Source: an uncultured Ruminococcus sp.
GTDB lineage: Bacteria; Bacillota; Clostridia; RUG12999
Assembly (NCBI GenBank): GCA_902784805.1
Contig: CACZWD010000016.1
Location: forward strand, 16,754 to 80,753
Length of the DNA stretch: 64,000 nt
Direction: 5' to 3'
The notes under the pieces were generated by a model. It ran no database searches and was not told where the DNA came from. It saw nothing but the letters and a program-made list of their open reading frames with translations. The position numbers were made by a program, and so were the translations under genes. This document shows, one piece after another, positions 2,492 through 45,514 of the stretch (position 1 is its first letter; the number at the start of each line of letters is the position of its first letter).

Positions 2492-3676
2492 ATGAATAAA
2501 AGAACAATATATTTTGACCATGCGGCAACTACGCCGGTTAAGCCTGAAGTGCTTGCGGCGATGTTGCCTTATTTTGTTGAGCACTATGGAAATCCTTCAT
2601 CAATCTACGGTATCGGGAGAGATAACCGTGAAGCGGTAAATGCCGCAAGAGAAAAAATTGCCGCGGCAATCGGCGCGAAAGCAAACGAAATATATTTTAC
2701 AGGCTGCGGAACAGAGGCGGATAACTGGGCAATAAAAGGTACGGCGCGCGCGTATAAGGATAGGGGAAGGCACATTATTACATCGGCAATTGAGCATCAC
2801 GCCGTGCTTCACACCTGCGCGGCTCTTGAAAAAGAAGGCTTTGAGGTAACATATATAAAGCCCGATGAATACGGAATTATAAGTCCGGAGGACGTTGAAA
2901 AAGCGATTCGCCCCGATACCGTGCTTATCAGTATTATGTTTGCGAATAATGAAATCGGCACGGTGCAGGATATTGCGGCGATAGGTGAAATCGCGAAAGC
3001 GCATAAAATTGTTTTTCATACCGACGCGGTTCAGGCGGCGGGAGCGCTTAAAATTGACGTTAAGGAAATGAATATTGATATGATGTCAATGTCGGCGCAT
3101 AAGCTTTACGGGCCAAAAGGCGTGGGAGCGCTTTATATACGCTCCGGTGTACGTCCCGATATTTTCCTTGACGGCGGAGCGCAGGAACGCGGCAGGCGGG
3201 GCGGTACGGAAAATGTTGCGGGCATTGTGGGCTTTGCAAAGGCAATGGAAATCGCAATGGAAGGTATTGAAGAAAAAGCGGCGTATATTTCCACAATGAG
3301 AGATTATCTTATTGAAAAAATTGAGGAAAAAATCCCTTATATAAAACTGAACGGTCACAGAACACAGCGTCTGCCGAATAATGTCAATTTTTCATTTAAA
3401 TTTATTGAAGGCGAAGCCTTGCTTTTAAGCCTTGATTTTAAAGGAATTGCGGCATCAAGCGGTTCTGCCTGCACGTCAGGCTCTCTTGACCCGTCACACG
3501 TGCTGCTTGCAATAGGGCTTCCGCACGAAATTGCCCACGGCTCGCTCCGTCTTACGATAGGCGAAGAAACCACTATGGAGGATATTGATTATGTCGTGGA
3601 AAGCCTTGTTGAAATTGTCGATAGATTAAGAAAAATGTCACCTCTTTATGAAGAAGTAATTAAAAATAAAGCGTAA
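2492..3676 (+). CDS. nifS: cysteine desulfurase (NifS/IscS class)
   Basis: PLP-dependent class V aminotransferase pattern (SAHKLYGPKG, SSGSACTSG). The ATG at 2492 has better RBS spacing than the one at 2483. Confidence 0.9.
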   Translation: MNKRTIYFDHAATTPVKPEVLAAMLPYFVEHYGNPSSIYGIGRDNREAVNAAREKIAAAIGAKANEIYFTGCGTEADNWAIKGTARAYKDRGRHIITSAIEHHAVLHTCAALEKEGFEVTYIKPDEYGIISPEDVEKAIRPDTVLISIMFANNEIGTVQDIAAIGEIAKAHKIVFHTDAVQAAGALKIDVKEMNIDMMSMSAHKLYGPKGVGALYIRSGVRPDIFLDGGAQERGRRGGTENVAGIVGFAKAMEIAMEGIEEKAAYISTMRDYLIEKIEEKIPYIKLNGHRTQRLPNNVNFSFKFIEGEALLLSLDFKGIAASSGSACTSGSLDPSHVLLAIGLPHEIAHGSLRLTIGEETTMEDIDYVVESLVEIVDRLRKMSPLYEEVIKNKA

Positions 3677-4501: not shown

Positions 4502-5566
4502 ATGGACATCAGAATTGAAAAGACAAAATCACCAAAACAAATTCCGGACTTTAAAGGTCCTCTCGGCTTCGGTAAAATTTTCACTGACCATATGTTCGTT
4601 ATGAACTATACCGAGGGTAAAGGCTGGCATGACGCGAGAGTCATTCCTTATCAGAATCTTTCTCTTTCGCCGGCAAGTATGGTTTTCCATTACGGACAGG
4701 AAATGTTTGAGGGTTTAAAAGCTTATAAGGGAAAAGACGGCAAGGTAAGGCTTTTCCGTCCCGATATGAACGCGAAAAGAGCAAACGCTTCAAATGACAG
4801 ACTTTGCATACCGAGAATCCCGGAGGAGGATTTCGTACAGGCTGTTAAAACTGTTGTTGAGGTTGACAGCGATTGGGTTCCGACAGAGCCCGGAACATCG
4901 CTTTATGTTCGTCCCTTTGTTATCGCGACAGACGATTTTCTTGGTGTTGCGCCTTCAAAAACCTATCTTTTCATAATTATACTTTCTCCGAGCGGCGCTT
5001 ATTACTCAAGCGGTCTTGCGCCTGTCGGCATATGGATTGAGGACGAGTATGTAAGAGCCGTAAGAGGCGGTATAGGCTTCGCTAAAACAGGCGGCAACTA
5101 CGCGGCGAGCCTTGCGGCGCAGGTTAAGGCTCATGACGACGGATATTCTCAGGTACTTTGGCTTGACGGTGTTGAGCGTAAGTATATTGAAGAAGTCGGC
5201 GCTATGAATATCTTCTTCAAAATTAACGGCAAAATTGTTACTCCCATGCTCAGTGGAAGTATCTTGCCCGGTATAACAAGAAATTCCGTTATAAATGTAT
5301 GTAAGAGCTGGGGCTACGAGGTTGAGGAAAGAAAAATATCCGTGGACGAGCTTATCGCCGCGCAGAAGTCCGGCGCTCTTGAAGAAGTTTTCGGAACAGG
5401 CACGGCTGCGGTTATTTCACCTGTCGGCAAGCTTCGTTATAAAGACGATGTTATGACGATAAACGGCGGAGATATAGGACCTGTAAGCCAAAAGCTTTAT
5501 GATACCATAACAGGGCTTCAGAACGGAACTCTTGAAGATACCTTCGGCTGGACGGTAACGCTTTAA
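4502..5566 (+). CDS. ilvE: branched-chain amino acid aminotransferase
   Basis: 354 aa class IV aminotransferase (FEGLKAY, GGNYAASL, EVGAMNIFF, PGITR). Confidence 0.9.
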   Translation: MDIRIEKTKSPKQIPDFKGPLGFGKIFTDHMFVMNYTEGKGWHDARVIPYQNLSLSPASMVFHYGQEMFEGLKAYKGKDGKVRLFRPDMNAKRANASNDRLCIPRIPEEDFVQAVKTVVEVDSDWVPTEPGTSLYVRPFVIATDDFLGVAPSKTYLFIIILSPSGAYYSSGLAPVGIWIEDEYVRAVRGGIGFAKTGGNYAASLAAQVKAHDDGYSQVLWLDGVERKYIEEVGAMNIFFKINGKIVTPMLSGSILPGITRNSVINVCKSWGYEVEERKISVDELIAAQKSGALEEVFGTGTAAVISPVGKLRYKDDVMTINGGDIGPVSQKLYDTITGLQNGTLEDTFGWTVTL

Positions 5567-35619: not shown

Positions 35620-36099
35620 GATTTCTGAAAAAAGGTTACAGAATTTTAGTGTTCCGGCATTAAAATTCATGGGAAAGTGAAATTGTTCTCTTAGTTTTCT
35701 TATGGATTCGTGATAAAATAACCTCAATATCGATAAAGATGCTTAACACAAGAGTAATCATTGTTTCCAAAGAAGGAAATCAATGATCGTAGATGTAAGA
35801 AAAATATACCTTCGTTTTTCAGCTTTACAAAACATACTATACTACTATGTTTTTCTTTATGCTGATTGCCTTCTTCTATATCTAAAGTCGTTTTTCATTG
35901 AACCGCAGAAAATGCCCTATTGCAGAAGCAACAGGGCATTTTTGTGCGAGTTTTGTTATAAGATTCAATCAAGAGCGCCACAGGTGAAACCGTAAAAAGG
36001 TGGTAGTGAAATGAGAGGCGTTATGCCCGCATTTACAAGGGCATAGACGAAACGAACAAGCAAAAGGAGGAACGATGGTGCGTGTGACTGATTTTTGTG

Positions 36100-36135
36100 T
36101 AAACAAAAATCGGAACGGAGCTTTCGTCCGTTCCG
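36100..36135 (-). terminator. intrinsic terminator downstream of tRNA-Leu
   Basis: On the minus strand: cggaacggacgaaagctccgttccg followed by atttttgttt. It is part of the 65-bp repeat shared with 44210-44274. Confidence 0.7.
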
Positions 36136-36138
36136 ACG

Positions 36139-36223
36139 TGGTGCGGATGACAGGGGTCGAACCTGCACGCCTTGCAGCACAAGAACCTAAATCTTGCGTG
36201 TATGCCAATTTCACCACATCCGC
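36139..36223 (-). tRNA. tRNA-Leu (anticodon UAG), class II with long variable arm, encoded CCA
   Basis: Minus strand GCGGATGTGGTGAAATTGGCA...CAAGA-TTTAGGT-TCTTG...GGTTCGACCCCTGTCATCCGCACCA gives a cloverleaf that folds by hand. Confidence 0.9.
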
Positions 36224-41785: not shown

Positions 41786-42478
41786 ATGAAAATTTTTAAA
41801 AAAATATTTTTGCTGATTTTGATTGCGGGGATTATATTTTGCGGGTATCAGGTAAAGCTCGGATATGAAAAATACTCTGCCGCGCTTGCAGAACTGCCTC
41901 TTGACAGGGCAATCGCGAATCTGCAGGAAAAAGAGCATTATACATATTATGATGACATTCCCGAAATATATTTTAAAGCCGTTGTCGCGGTTGAGGACAG
42001 GCGTTTCTATAAACACAAAGGTTTTGATTTTATCGGAGCCGCAAGAGCAATTTACAATGATATAAGAGCGAAAGAAATGCTTGAAGGCGGGAGCACTATA
42101 TCTCAGCAGCTTGCTAAAAATATGTATTTTCCGAAGGATTATACTCTTCAGCGGAAAATAGCGGAAATTTTTATGGCAAGTAAAATTGAAAAAGAATACA
42201 AGAAAGAAGATATACTTGAATTTTACGCGAATATAATATATTTCGGAAGCGGATATTATTGTATATATGACGCGGCTGAAGGTTATTTCGGTAAAAAACC
42301 CGCAGATATGACGGGCGATGAATGTACACTTCTTGCGGGAGTACCGAATGCCCCGTCGGTTTATTCGCCGAAGGTAAACCCCGGACTTGCAAAAAACAGA
42401 CAGGAAAAGGTTATAAAAAGTATGATTGAATGTGGCTACATATCTGATAAGGGTGATTTGTTAAACAATGAGCGCTGA
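41786..42478 (+). CDS. mtgA: monofunctional peptidoglycan glycosyltransferase (GT51)
   Basis: AVEDRRFYKHKGFD and GGSTISQQLAKN are GT51 motifs, and there is an N-terminal TM anchor. Confidence 0.8.
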   Translation: MKIFKKIFLLILIAGIIFCGYQVKLGYEKYSAALAELPLDRAIANLQEKEHYTYYDDIPEIYFKAVVAVEDRRFYKHKGFDFIGAARAIYNDIRAKEMLEGGSTISQQLAKNMYFPKDYTLQRKIAEIFMASKIEKEYKKEDILEFYANIIYFGSGYYCIYDAAEGYFGKKPADMTGDECTLLAGVPNAPSVYSPKVNPGLAKNRQEKVIKSMIECGYISDKGDLLNNER

Positions 42479-42555
42479 TAACATTTTTTGTTAAAGAACG
42501 CATTATAACGCAGTATATAGTAAAAAACAATTTCAACAGTTGTGGCATTTACAAG

Positions 42556-43215
42556 GTGAGAGCTTTTGTTATTCCGGCAAGAGTTGAGCGCCTCCGGGTT
42601 GAGGGCTTTAAAAGCGTGAAAATACCACAAAAATCATTGACAAATGCGGTAAAGGGTGGTATAATAAAAGAGAGCAGTAAAAAGGGCGTAACAAGCATAA
42701 CGGATTCAGCAATTGAAAAAGTGCCGAAGGTAAGTATAAAAGGCTTTACAGACGAACAGAATACTTTTATACAGCAACAGCATAAAGAACTATTACTGTA
42801 TGCACGTGACGAGAACGAAAGCAAAGAGGTTGCTTTTGTATTTAAAAAAGATTTTTCGGAAAAAATATCTTTTAAAGGCGATGAAGAACATGTAAGTTTC
42901 GGTGCTGCTTTACAAGGTAAAGGTAATAACTTGTTTGTTATGCATAATCATCCGAAAAATAGTGGTTATTCAGATACAGATATTATATTTTTTATAAGTG
43001 ATGAAAGGGTACAAACCTTAACATTGGTAAAGAATAACGGTTCTGTAGAAGTGATAAATAAATTTGAAAAATTTGACCGTCTAAAAGCGACAAATACGTT
43101 TAAAAGAATTTATAAAAAAACAGTAAAAACAGGCACAGAACACGAAAAAGATATGGCAGTTAAAAAGTTTTTAGAAAAAGGATACGGTGGTTTTGAATGG
43201 ATGAAAAAAGAATAA
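42556..43215 (+). CDS. phage-derived protein fragment with JAB/RadC-like motif (possible C-terminal module of a head-morphogenesis MuF/gp7-like protein)
   Basis: GTG start with no convincing RBS. The motif is VMHNHPKNSGYSDTD. The region is AT-richer than its neighbours and lies upstream of a scaffold gene. Confidence 0.35.
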   Translation: MRAFVIPARVERLRVEGFKSVKIPQKSLTNAVKGGIIKESSKKGVTSITDSAIEKVPKVSIKGFTDEQNTFIQQQHKELLLYARDENESKEVAFVFKKDFSEKISFKGDEEHVSFGAALQGKGNNLFVMHNHPKNSGYSDTDIIFFISDERVQTLTLVKNNGSVEVINKFEKFDRLKATNTFKRIYKKTVKTGTEHEKDMAVKKFLEKGYGGFEWMKKE

Positions 43216-43334
43216 ATTTCCTTGATGGGAGTATTGAGGAAAGAGAAAGAGCGGTTAAAGAATTTTTTGGATTAAAACCCGAACAGTCGTTTCAAGATTT
43301 AGAAATTGAAGATGATGAGGAAAACGACGAATAA
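43197..43334 (+). CDS. small acidic protein (45 aa, MDEKRINFLDGSIEERERAVKEFFGLKPEQSFQDLEIEDDEENDE)
   Basis: The ATG overlaps the end of the preceding ORF. Two terminators follow. It is below the ORF-track cutoff. Confidence 0.35.
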   Translation: MDEKRINFLDGSIEERERAVKEFFGLKPEQSFQDLEIEDDEENDE

Positions 43335-43337
43335 AAC

Positions 43338-43369
43338 AGCACTTATCCATATGATAGGTGCTATTTTTA
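43338..43369 (+). terminator. intrinsic terminator (first of a tandem pair with near-identical stems)
   Basis: agcacttatc / catat / gataggtgct, followed by atttttat. Confidence 0.6.
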
Positions 43370-43389
43370 TACACTAATTCAATAATTCA

Positions 43390-43421
43390 AGCACTTACTT
43401 TTACGGTAGGTGCTTTTATTA
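43390..43421 (+). terminator. intrinsic terminator (second of the tandem pair)
   Basis: agcacttac / ttttacg / gtaggtgct, followed by tttatta. Confidence 0.5.
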
Positions 43422-43509
43422 TACCCAAAAATAAGTCCGCAATGACGTAAAACTAAGTGAGCGAGCCAAAGCAACTGGCGTAAAACAGCGTAGCAAAAGG
43501 AAGGAAACC

Positions 43510-44209
43510 ATGACAAGAGAGGAACTTAAAAAAATTGTAGAGGGCGTTACCGATGAGCAGCTTGATAAAATTCTCGGTACCGGTAGGCTGTAACACCTAA
43601 AACTTCACACTATTATCTTTGTATAAGCTGCGTAAGCAGCGTTTTCCTTCTTGACGGGCGTCAGCCCGCCTGCGTCGTCATCCTTGTTTGCACAGCTTAT
43701 ACTTTGATACTAATGCAAACTTTTAGATGCTACAGCCTACTAACGGAGCGGACATCAACAAGGCGAAAAACGGTGTTGACGCCTTAAAGACCGAGCTTGA
43801 AAGCCTTAAAAAGGCGAAGGGTGAGCTTGAAAACAAGGTAAAAGACCTCACAGACAGCGCAAAGACGGCGGACGACTACAAAAAGGAGCTTGAGAAGCTG
43901 CAGAAGGAAGTCAAAGAAAAGGCGGAAGCAGAGGAAAAACAGAAAGCGGATAATGAGCTTACTGCTGCCATTGAAAACTCTTTCGGCGATAAAAAATTCA
44001 GCTCCGATTATGTGAGACGCGGCATAATTGCCGACATGAAAGCCGAGATTGCAAAGCCCGAAAACAAGGGCAAAGGCTATTCAGAAATCTTTGAAGCCTT
44101 AACGAAGGATAAGGCGGGGATTTTTGAAAATCCGAACAAGCCCGCCGATATGGCAGGTATAGGAAAAGCAGAAACTAAGACAGATGAAGCGGCAGCCAGG
44201 GCGGAATGA
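43510..44209 (+). pseudogene. phage scaffold protein (GP20-like) gene interrupted by a 152-bp MITE
   Basis: The 5' part (43510-43593, MTREELKKIVEGVTDEQLDKILGTGRL*) and the 3' part (43727-44209) are in different frames. Deleting 43586-43739 (154 nt) joins them in frame. Confidence 0.7.
43586..43737. mobile_element. 152-bp MITE-like element with 17-bp terminal inverted repeats, flanked by TA/TA
   Basis: Left end ggctgtaacacctaaaa versus the reverse complement of the right end, ggctgtagcatctaaaa (15/17 match). TA at 43584-85 and 43738-39. Nested internal inverted repeats (gtataagctg / cagcttatac). Confidence 0.7.
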
Positions 44210-44235
44210 CGATGCGCGTGTAACTGATTTTTGTG

Positions 44236-44271
44236 CAAACAAAAATCGGAACGGAGCTTTCGTCCGTTCCG
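44236..44271 (-). terminator. intrinsic terminator downstream of tRNA-Pro
   Basis: Same hairpin as at 36111-36135, followed by a U-run on the minus strand. Confidence 0.7.
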
Positions 44272-44274
44272 ACG

Positions 44275-44350
44275 TGGTCGGAGTGACAAGACTTGAACTT
44301 GCGGCCCCTAGACCCCCAGTCTAGTGCGCTACCAGCTGCGCCACACCCCG
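44275..44350 (-). tRNA. tRNA-Pro (anticodon GGG), encoded CCA
   Basis: Minus strand CGGGGTG-TG-GCGC-AGCTGGTA-GCGC-A-CTAGA-CTGGGGG-TCTAG-GGGCC-GCAAG-TTCAAGT-CTTGT-CACTCCG-A-CCA, 76 nt. Confidence 0.9.
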
Positions 44351-44527
44351 ATATTGTAACAAAAAAACATTATTTTCTTTTATCGACCATTATATTATAC
44401 CACATATTAAATTAAAATGCAAGCCCTAATTTTAAAAAAATTAAAAAATTAAATATTTTTCAAATACTTGCATATATATTAAAAATATGATAAAATATTT
44501 ACAAATATTTTGAGGGCGGGTGGTTTT

Positions 44528-45514
44528 ATGAATATTCGTGAAAGAACACAAAGCTTTGAGGAACTTATTCTTTGTCCGGAAGCGACGTTTTCAAAAAATA
44601 CGAAGGGCAGGAAAATTTATGAAGAGCCATGCCCTATGAGAACGGAATTTCAGCGTGACCGCGACAGAATAATTCATTCAAAAGCTTTCAGAAGATTAAA
44701 GCATAAAACTCAGGTTTTTCTGATACCGGAGGGGGACCATTACAGGACAAGACTTACGCATACGCTTGAGGTTGCGCAGATAGCAAGGAGTCTTGCGAGA
44801 ATACTCAGGCTTAATGAAGACCTTGTTGAGGCAATCGCTCTCGGTCATGACCTTGGACATACTCCTTTCGGACATGCGGGCGAGAGGACGTTAAATGAAA
44901 TGTTCGGAAATTTTAAACATGCGGAGCATAGTCTGCGTGTCGCGGAGCTTGAAGGGCTTAATCTTACATATGAGGTGAAAGACGGAATGGCAAATCACCG
45001 TTCGGACGGTAATCCGTCAACGTTTGAGGGAAGGCTTGTACAGCTTTCCGACAAATTTGCTTATGTAAATCATGATGTCGGTGACGCGCTGCGCGCCGGA
45101 CTTATTGTTTTTGAAGATATACCGAAGGAATGTATAAAAGTTTTGGGTGATACACATTCAAAACGCATAAATACGCTTATTACGGATATTGCAAAGCGCG
45201 GCATATCGGGAGGAAAAATTGAGCTTTCGGAAGATGTGAAAACCGCGTTTTTAAGTCTTCGTGATTTTTTGTTTAAAAAGGTTTATACCGATAATGCCGC
45301 AAAAGATGAGGAGGTTAAGGCAAAAAAAATTATTTCCGCGCTGTATTCTTATTTTACCGAACATCCGGAAGATTTGCCGGAGGACGAAAGAGGAAAGATT
45401 GCGGAAGGGCAAGAGGTTTGCCGCACAGTTTGTGATTATATTGCGGGCATGTCGGATTTTTATGCGATAAATGAATTTTCAAAAATATACATACCGAAAG
45501 CGTGGAAAACTTGA
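44528..45514 (+). CDS. dgt: dGTPase-like HD-domain triphosphohydrolase
   Basis: FQRDRDRIIHSKAFRRLKHKTQVF, the HD motif (GHDLGHTPFGH) and YICDYIAGMSD-like C-terminal sequence. Confidence 0.85.
   Translation: MNIRERTQSFEELILCPEATFSKNTKGRKIYEEPCPMRTEFQRDRDRIIHSKAFRRLKHKTQVFLIPEGDHYRTRLTHTLEVAQIARSLARILRLNEDLVEAIALGHDLGHTPFGHAGERTLNEMFGNFKHAEHSLRVAELEGLNLTYEVKDGMANHRSDGNPSTFEGRLVQLSDKFAYVNHDVGDALRAGLIVFEDIPKECIKVLGDTHSKRINTLITDIAKRGISGGKIELSEDVKTAFLSLRDFLFKKVYTDNAAKDEEVKAKKIISALYSYFTEHPEDLPEDERGKIAEGQEVCRTVCDYIAGMSDFYAINEFSKIYIPKAWKT

Follow-up and report, generated by a model that had tools for sequence, protein, structure and literature searches.

A probable IS630-derived MITE interrupts a relic prophage scaffold gene in an uncultured rumen member of the Clostridia

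The Interrupted Scaffold Gene and Its Prophage Remnant

The window, i.e., the whole 64-kb stretch of DNA that was analyzed, contains a prophage remnant anchored at a tRNA-Pro gene, and within this remnant a scaffold gene is divided by an insert into a short N-terminal stub and a longer C-terminal open reading frame (ORF) (Table 1). This arrangement, a 27-codon stub followed by a later ORF in another frame, had been described in an earlier interpretation based on the letters of the window (hereafter, the sequence-only reading) and was confirmed, together with all the ORF and element coordinates that it had given. The GP20-b RNA motif, known as a leader 5′ of Phage_scaffold/GP20 genes, is intact upstream of the stub and confirms both the identity and the orientation of the interrupted gene. 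Deletion of 154 nt (43586–43739) generates a protein of 181 amino acids that matches PF06810 (Phage_scaffold) in one stretch over residues 1–166 (E = 2.5e-17) and also matches the head scaffolding protein family phrog_194 (PHROG 194). Every parse of the insert restores the frame, because 154, 157, and 160 each leave a remainder of 1 when divided by 3. The scaffold identity proposed in the sequence-only reading was thereby borne out by PF06810, whereas its wording, a split "phage scaffold gene," overstates the damage, because the host gene of the insert is a truncated relic.

Table 1. Features of the interrupted scaffold locus, with positions in the window
Feature	Position	Strand	Description
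GP20-b RNA motif (RF03003)	43434..43492	+	37.4 bits (gathering score, 36.2), E = 7e-6; intact, upstream
N-terminal scaffold stub	43510..43593	+	27 aa, MTREELKKIVEGVTDEQLDKILGTGRL; 25 native codons, followed by element-encoded R, L, and stop
6-nt tandem duplication	43575..43585	+	CGGTAC + CGGTA, completed by the C at 43740 after deletion of the element plus a TA
Alternative element boundary	43583..43740		158 nt, GTAGGCTG...CAGCCTAC; whole palindrome; left flank CG, not TA
Left TA, putative target-site duplication	43584..43585		
Core of the probable MITE	43586..43737		152 nt, GGCTGTAAC...GCTACAGCC; long near-perfect palindrome without transposase coding capacity
Left terminal inverted repeat	43586..43603	+	GGCTGTAACACCTAAAAC
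Right terminal inverted repeat	43720..43737	-	reverse complement GGCTGTAGCATCTAAAAG; includes an outward-facing ATG (43727), the start codon of the 160-aa ORF
C-terminal scaffold ORF	43727..44209	+	160 aa, different frame; first four codons (MLQP) from the terminal repeat
Right TA, putative target-site duplication	43738..43739		TA is the overlap of the two BLAST segments of L036
tRNA-Pro(GGG)	44275..44350	-	anchor of the prophage remnant

The extent of prophage decay is apparent from the ortholog of this locus in a related species (L036), which is 87% identical across the tRNA-Pro gene and the HD-domain gene and retains a minor-capsid-like gene, an intact scaffold gene of 187 amino acids, a 101-aa gene, a holin, and an amidase. 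In the window, the prophage is reduced to an upstream gene in fragmentary form, an ORF of 45 aa, and the scaffold gene; the 101-aa gene, the holin, and the amidase of L036 are absent from this locus. Furthermore, the 3′ end of the scaffold gene carries a replacement segment of approximately 70–80 nt, which shares 93% identity with sequence downstream of a tRNA-Leu gene at 36072–36152 and was duplicated from there. The last few codons of the 160-aa ORF diverge from those of its homologues, and the gene is therefore 3′-truncated at approximately position 44203. Three further loci were reached via the neighboring HD-domain protein: L078 carries a larger piece of prophage at the same tRNA-Pro gene and L071 and L079 carry a different remnant, and none of the three has a scaffold gene, so that they provide no allele free of the insert. 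The scaffold gene was already, or soon became, a relic without partner genes.

Terminal Repeats and Fold of the Insert

The ends of the insert, GGCTGTAACACCTAAAA and TTTTAGATGCTACAGCC, match each other at 15 of 17 positions, as the sequence-only reading had reported, and at 18 of 21 positions when the outer GTA is counted in. Sites of this terminal type are rare: an 18-mer search of the window allowing up to three mismatches retrieved only the two ends of the insert, whereas 0.04 would be expected by chance. The inverted-repeat arms reach 56 nt (43583–43638 and 43685–43740) and are 77% complementary, and a TA dinucleotide is seen on both sides of the insert, also in accordance with that reading. 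The size of the element, 152–158 nt depending on its boundary, is within the limit for MITEs (less than approximately 300 bp). One forward-strand frame, read straight from the sequence, is open through the whole element for 50 codons, and a protein-database search with the corresponding peptide found no protein that contains it.

The element region folds into one long hairpin on either strand, with -61.7 kcal/mol (z = -7.9) on the forward strand and -77.4 kcal/mol (z = -9.4) on the reverse strand, and none of 200 shuffled sequences equalled this stability; the predicted folding of the whole insert was thus upheld. The stem of the window copy comprises 49 Watson–Crick and 12 wobble pairs among 76. 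Given such a structure, one may ask whether the hairpin has been kept for a function, as a structural RNA or regulatory element, be it a transcript-stabilizing stem-loop, a stem-loop processed by RNase III, or an outward promoter with a start codon for a truncated scaffold protein. The 16 kcal/mol by which the reverse-strand fold exceeds the forward one would be in line with selection on RNA from one strand; however, wobble pairs are near-balanced by strand, at 7 versus 5 in the window copy and 5 versus 5 in a second full copy (L046, described below), and strand-specific RNA selection was rejected on these counts. One fully compensatory pair (A-T to G-C) distinguishes the two copies, although it is the only one, and a scan of positions 42000–45000 at E values up to 10 returned no Rfam match over the element. 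A -35/-10-like pair, TCGTCA-17-TATACT (43675–43703), is aimed at the ATG at 43727, but promoter-like sites number 2 against 1.9 expected in shuffled sequence, the ATG is preceded by no Shine–Dalgarno sequence, and the downstream ORF is 3′-truncated and lacks any partner gene. The insertion is fixed in four assemblies, which accords with retention for a function; overall, such retention is improbable, and a regulatory or coding role of the hairpin is unsupported. Likewise, the right-repeat ATG and the -35/-10-like pair might have turned the scaffold C-terminus into an independently expressed coiled-coil protein of 160 amino acids, perhaps retained by the host, but this has little probability.

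Empty Sites in Homologous Genes and Six Additional Nucleotides

Comparison with intact scaffold genes of related phages and prophages, which the sequence-only reading had proposed, revealed nothing equivalent to the insert at its position. Five uninterrupted homologous genes with 83–92% nucleotide identity, including L033–L036, all read through the site. The DNA at the site is attctcggtat[c/t]aacgga in L033–L036, L033–L035 reading attctcggtatcaacgga and L036 reading attctcggtattaacgga, whereas the corresponding site in the window is attctcggta-CCGGTA-[GGCTG...CAGCC]-TA-ctaacgga. Furthermore, the closest database proteins are continuous across the junction (P0001 with 91% identity, P0002 and P0003 with 85%), as are the relatives L024, L025, L027, and L029 in IMG/VR.

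The net excess of the window over the empty sites is 160 nt. Removal of the element together with one TA was said in the sequence-only reading to restore the frame exactly; the frame is indeed restored, but the deletion leaves 6 nt beyond the homologues, the extra sequence being 160 nt and not 154. These 6 nt form a perfect tandem duplication, CGGTAC-CGGTAC, that is absent from all homologues, and in consequence the restored protein reads ILGTGTNG where P0001 reads ILGING, GT having become GTGT. Two origins of the additional nucleotides were considered and rejected. Under the established chemistry of Tc1/mariner elements, excision of an element with GG...CC ends leaves a footprint of TAGGCCTA, whereas TACCGGTA is seen. 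A target-site duplication of 3 nt (TAC) or of the 6 nt themselves would demand asymmetric ends (CGGTAGGCTG... versus ...CAGCC), unlike those of the L046 copy. The additional CCGGTA at the left junction could conceivably record an IS630-type transposase choosing aberrant ends or transducing flanking DNA.

Boundary of the Element

The boundary of the element is ambiguous, since it can be parsed either as 152 nt (GGCTG..CAGCC) or as 158 nt (GTAGG..CCTAC). Five MITE ends are available for comparison, namely both ends in the window, both ends of the L046 copy, and the left end of a truncated copy (L042). TA directly adjoins GGCTG at all five, whereas TA stands before GTAGGCTG at only three; TA flanks both ends in the window and in L046. 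Hence, the 152-nt element with a TA duplication is favored because it fits every MITE end, although it then needs, to account for the 160-nt excess, a single substitution as well as a 6-nt tandem duplication that pre-dated the insertion.

The alternative is that the same MITE is mobile as the 158-nt palindrome GTAGGCTG...CAGCCTAC, which would have entered the TA of att/atc-aac without any prior 6-nt duplication, the left tTA having later mutated to cCG. In this case, 158 nt plus 2 nt amounts exactly to the net excess, and the length of the protein then equals that of every homologue. Full-length IS relatives have termini of the form GTA(G/C)NCTGTAAC flanked by TA (L065, L067, L068, and L070); the longer unit also provides the sole simple account of IS-TA-IS junctions (L067 and L068), and G occupies position -3 at four of the five MITE ends. 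However, three neighboring transitions would be needed within a flank whose conservation is otherwise approximately 92%, and the right end of L046, CAGCCTAG-cc, is compatible only with 152 nt plus TA. Moreover, the element at L059 starts with TA directly followed by GGCTG and lacks the GTA, which shows that both end types occur in this element family. The 158-nt boundary thus retains real weight beside the shorter one, and it is possible, if rather less than probable, that it describes the mobile unit. The termini of the full-length IS relatives begin 3 nt further out (GTA...), a start that matches only some of the MITE ends.

Other Copies of the Element

Further copies were sought in several collections. 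The pattern TAGGCTGTARCAYCTAAAA, run against GTDB with a single genome for each species, yielded 11 loci, of which two, both in the same MAG of Ruminococcus sp. RUG12999, carry the element itself: L046 contains a full copy of 152 nt (1608–1759) that is 90% identical, has TA on both sides, and gives two inverted hits, and L042 contains a truncated left half (4885–4948). The search for other copies suggested by the sequence-only reading was therefore successful, in another genome. Both copies lie in non-coding contexts unrelated to the scaffold gene, amid other short GC-rich hairpin repeats. The exact family amounts to three copies across the collections searched (window, L046, and L042), and its copy number is only weakly established. 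The sequence-only reading had named, as outcomes that would speak against it, equivalent sequence in intact homologues, or the lack of any other copy together with signs of splicing or bypassing; the homologues instead carry empty sites, and further copies were found.

GenBank phages and PLSDB plasmids contain no copy of the element, blastn returning only chance matches of 29–34 nt, and three pattern scans of IMG/VR (one with the terminal repeat and two with internal segments) found no copy either. The terminal-repeat scan of IMG/VR gave 23 single hits without the rest of the element, mostly in one conserved phage gene, and the two internal-segment scans gave 0 and 4 chance hits. A scan of JGI metagenomes retrieved relatives that share the terminal repeats, with no exact copy of the family. 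The remaining loci of the GTDB scan share just the pattern of approximately 19 nt and are mostly chance-like; some of them, L043 and the group L038/L040/L041, resemble related elements.

Palindromes and repeats are often misassembled, and the insert might in principle be a chimeric palindrome made by the assembler. Nevertheless, the identical 158-nt sequence recurs at this very position in L062–L064, three more assemblies of the species that were built independently from different samples (98.9–100% identical overall), and a 90% identical copy is present in another MAG. An assembly artefact, scarcely credible on these grounds, is ruled out by the identity of the allele in L062–L064. The insertion is carried by four assemblies, which shows that it is fixed in this species. 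It persists in these four despite the loss of all other head genes.

Relationship to IS630-Family Elements and Proposed Mechanism of Insertion

The window itself provides no parent for the element; in agreement with the sequence-only reading, which had noted neither a second copy nor a transposase gene there, tblastn with IS630 OrfA and OrfB found no IS630 transposase in the 64 kb (nothing below E = 1). The JGI metagenome scan yielded 14 loci, several of which contain elements with the same terminus. At L060, the sequence GTAGGCTGTAACATCTAAAAC, identical to the left end of the element at 20 of 21 positions (GTA included), is located approximately 70 nt upstream of an IS630-type OrfA of 153 amino acids, which has an HTH_32 domain and a partial match to NF033545 (IS630 transposase); this OrfA is followed by a run of seven A residues, after which the DDE region begins in a different frame. 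With the L060 OrfA as query, over 1,000 relatives from gut and rumen metagenomes were recovered at E < 1e-30; a conserved two-ORF subgroup of IS630 is indicated, as 153 amino acids is the length of most OrfA relatives among the matches listed. From the contigs of these relatives, a complete IS of approximately 1.23 kb was obtained at L070 with GTAGACTGTAACAACTAAAAC at both ends, which is identical to the left end of the element at 19 of 21 positions. It is flanked by C-TA and TA-G; a CTAG target with duplication of the TA is the classical site of IS630. Its OrfA (HTH_32) and OrfB (DDE_3) overlap at a slippery run of eight A residues, and the fusion of both, OrfAB, reaches 172.6 bits with NF033545, the model for IS630 family transposases, whose cut-off is 100. 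More distant IS relatives with the same architecture are represented by L065 and L067–L069. A shorter MITE of approximately 100 nt with like ends was also observed at L058.

An IS630-like parent family with matching ends, which the sequence-only reading had proposed to search for, was thus identified at L060 and L070, and the classification as an IS630/Tc1-type MITE is supported by the terminal repeats, the TA flanks, the further copies, and the IS630 ends. The assignment to IS630 accordingly stands on computed results, beyond resemblance. An origin from the IS5 family (IS427/ISL2), prompted by ends of the GG...AAAA type, was dropped on the ground that such ends sit on IS630-family elements. 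The kinship is confined to the termini: the interior of the element is not recognizably derived from any recovered IS, the shared part being the first 21–30 nt only.

These ends also bear on the idea that the insert is taken out or passed over when the gene is expressed, as a self-splicing intron or through translational bypassing of the kind seen in T4 gene 60, and that the scaffold protein is still made. Removal of 154, 157, or 160 nt does restore the frame, and a stop codon soon follows the break. Nonetheless, the ends of the element are transposon ends, the same element occurs in non-coding contexts of another genome, and the gene is a truncated relic; moreover, the Rfam scan, which gave tRNA, GP20-b, and noise, placed neither an intron of group I or II nor any other family over 43583–43740. 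To our knowledge, 152 nt is too short for any known self-splicing ribozyme, and it is approximately three times the gap of T4 gene 60. Splicing or bypassing is therefore very improbable.

Taken together, the element has the small size, terminal inverted repeats, copies in unrelated contexts, and empty sites of a MITE and the termini and TA flanks of an IS630 derivative, and the insert is very probably a MITE, i.e., a non-autonomous derivative of an IS of the IS630 family (Tc1/mariner superfamily), in the scaffold gene of a prophage. The split scaffold ORF is explained in this manner by transposon insertion, not by recoding or by a sequencing error. As to mechanism, the geneless element would have kept terminal repeats of the form (G)(T)(A)GGCTGTAACAYCTAAAAC, the putative binding sites of a transposase, and would be moved in trans, by cut-and-paste, by an IS630 transposase supplied from another place in the genome; a putative parent IS with ends GTAGGCTGTAAC... 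would be expected in the same genomes. Presumably, the element entered a TA dinucleotide, which was thereby duplicated, within codon 25/26 of the scaffold gene, the prophage being integrated at tRNA-Pro. The likeliest target is a TA within GGTAC, in an allele in which the 6 nt CGGTAC had previously been duplicated in tandem, and such a pre-insertion allele would read GGTACCGGTAC. The frame is shifted as a result, the protein ends after 27 codons, and the 160-codon ORF starts at the right-repeat ATG by happenstance. The insertion was most likely neutral, since the gene lies in a remnant without capsid, tail, and lysis genes and without the last scaffold codons.

Comparison with Known Bacterial Elements

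The class to which the element is assigned is well known among mobile DNA, and no new mechanism is opened by it. Bacterial MITEs typically comprise 100–200 bp with a long stem-loop and TA termini, and IS630-Spn1/RUP provides a precedent for their derivation (PMC2229807). RUP of Streptococcus pneumoniae, which is linked to IS630-Spn1, is the closest such case: both elements are found in Firmicutes, are non-coding and approximately 100–150 bp in size, have IS630-like terminal repeats and a TA target, and are presumably mobilized in trans, and RUP is known to inactivate the genes that it enters (PMC2229807). The element in the window differs from RUP in its length (152–158 nt versus 107 nt), in its copies (very few known so far versus approximately 108), and in its hairpin, which covers almost the whole element, unlike that of RUP. 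Its IS relatives form a two-ORF IS630 subgroup (OrfA of 153 amino acids plus OrfB, with a frameshift at an A-run) in rumen and termite-gut metagenomes. According to the review of these elements (PMC2229807), RUP was the only bacterial repeat element with terminal repeats tied to an IS; for the element in the window, an IS630 parent family was identified.

The sequence-only reading had additionally called the architecture Correia-like. This is apt as an analogy of architecture, since Correia/NEMIS elements of Neisseria have a common size class with the element in the window (107–155 bp), TA termini with duplication, a long stem-loop, and locations in or beside genes (PMC2229807), but it does not extend to family membership: Correia/NEMIS constitute another sequence family, with an IHF site of their own and documented promoter and RNase III functions. 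In a comparison limited to architecture, the element appears to belong to neither named family, RUP nor Correia. The terminal repeat sequences of RUP and of Correia/NEMIS presumably differ from those in the window as well.

Relative to full IS of the IS630 family (NF033545), the element has 19–20 of the 21 terminal nucleotides in common with L060 and L070, and TA flanks, those of L070 being within CTAG; it has no transposase, is one eighth as long, and is unrelated in its interior beyond approximately 30 nt. A previously undescribed MITE family is thereby defined in uncultured rumen Clostridia and is tied to a widespread two-ORF subgroup of IS630. Furthermore, the insertion serves as a dated marker: this species has it, relatives at 87–90% identity lack it, and it helps to trace the stepwise decay of the prophage at tRNA-Pro. 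Finally, the element resembles the Rickettsia palindromic elements (RPE) in that both are palindromic repeats of approximately 100–150 bp inside protein genes; RPE insert in frame, whereas the element in the window is out of frame and adds a stop codon.

Prophage Decay at the tRNA-Pro Locus

The tRNA-Pro(GGG) gene is a hot spot of prophage integration in this group of rumen bacteria, as found in the window and in the tRNA-Pro loci of four relatives (L036, L071, L078, and L079). A larger piece of prophage is present in L078, the prophage is partly deleted with an intact scaffold gene in L036, and an unrelated 139-aa gene is located in L071 and L079; taken together, the loci of the relatives form a stepwise decay series. 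In the window, a segment of approximately 80 nt directly 3′ of the tRNA-Pro gene recurs with 93% identity directly 3′ of the tRNA-Leu gene, and the copy at tRNA-Pro contains a hairpin terminator. This segment occupies the place where L036 has the scaffold gene's 3′ terminus, a holin gene, and an amidase gene, and may therefore be the trace of a deletion or recombination by which the prophage was trimmed.

Features at the prophage site and its surroundings (window positions)
Feature	Position	Strand	Remark
Prophage remnant at tRNA-Pro	42556-44260		
tRNA-Pro	44275-44350	-	adjoins first segment copy
~80-nt segment, first copy	44209-44288		
Hairpin terminator	44245-44273		
tRNA-Leu	36139-36223	-	adjoins second segment copy
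~80-nt segment, second copy	36072-36152		
Terminator-like hairpins	43338-43362, 43389-43415	+	in succession (43338-43415)
GP20-b RNA motif (RF03003)	43434-43492	+	37.4 bits
CGGTAC duplication	43575-43585 and 43740		

Scaffold Gene Leader and Insertion Site

The GP20-b motif, scoring slightly over the gathering score, is located 5′ of the scaffold gene. Alignment of the window with three loci carrying an uninterrupted scaffold gene (L033–L035) revealed paired differences in the stem region (gCCAaagcaacTGGc vs. gTCTaagcaacAGAc), which look like covariation. The stretch separating the GP20-b leader from a 45-aa ORF contains two terminator-like hairpins of related sequence (AGCACTTA...TAGGTGCT). 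The MITE insertion site coincides exactly with a perfect tandem duplication of 6 nt, CGGTAC-CGGTAC (GT to GTGT), that none of the homologues has; the duplication additionally generates an 8-nt palindrome, TACCGGTA.

Reading Frames and Termini of Related Elements

Read outward, the terminal inverted repeat contains ...TTTTAG ATG (C/T)TA CAG CC followed by TA (ATG at 43727 in the right repeat of the window and at 718 in L060, a locus with a related element), so that, in one frame out of three, an ORF reading out of the element begins with MLQP. Such a start leads into the 160-aa C-terminus of the scaffold protein in the window and a 98-aa ORF in L060, probably by coincidence, because the chance is one in three on each occasion.

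In the IS630 subgroup, OrfA (153 aa) stops at a run of seven or eight A residues (L060, ~215–235; L070, ~505–520), beyond which the DDE domain continues in a different frame. Most of the listed matches among 1,067 OrfA homologues found are 153 aa long, which favors a programmed frameshift over a sequencing error. IS630-family ends also adjoin head-to-head or in tandem with one TA between them (...GTAC-TA-GTAC...; L067, ~3527–3560; L068, ~2400–2445; L059, ~1230–1265), suggesting either repeated insertion at the TA beside an existing copy or tandem/dimer forms.

Beside the MITE copies in the Ruminococcus MAG (L042, ~4700–4800; L046, ~1440–1560), a short hairpin rich in GC (GGGCGGCAGATTGCCGCCCCTACGG, with variants) recurs several times; these repeats may constitute a separate REP-like family. 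Three Bacteroidota MAGs (Chitinophagaceae, Sediminibacterium; L038, L040, and L041) carry the same 17-nt terminus as the MITE, TA followed by GGCTGTAACATCTAAAA, and subsequent ATTTGAAAATTTGA repeats, and their left flanks (ttctttta) resemble one another. Another element with this terminal inverted repeat, or else an orthologous locus, could account for the similarity.
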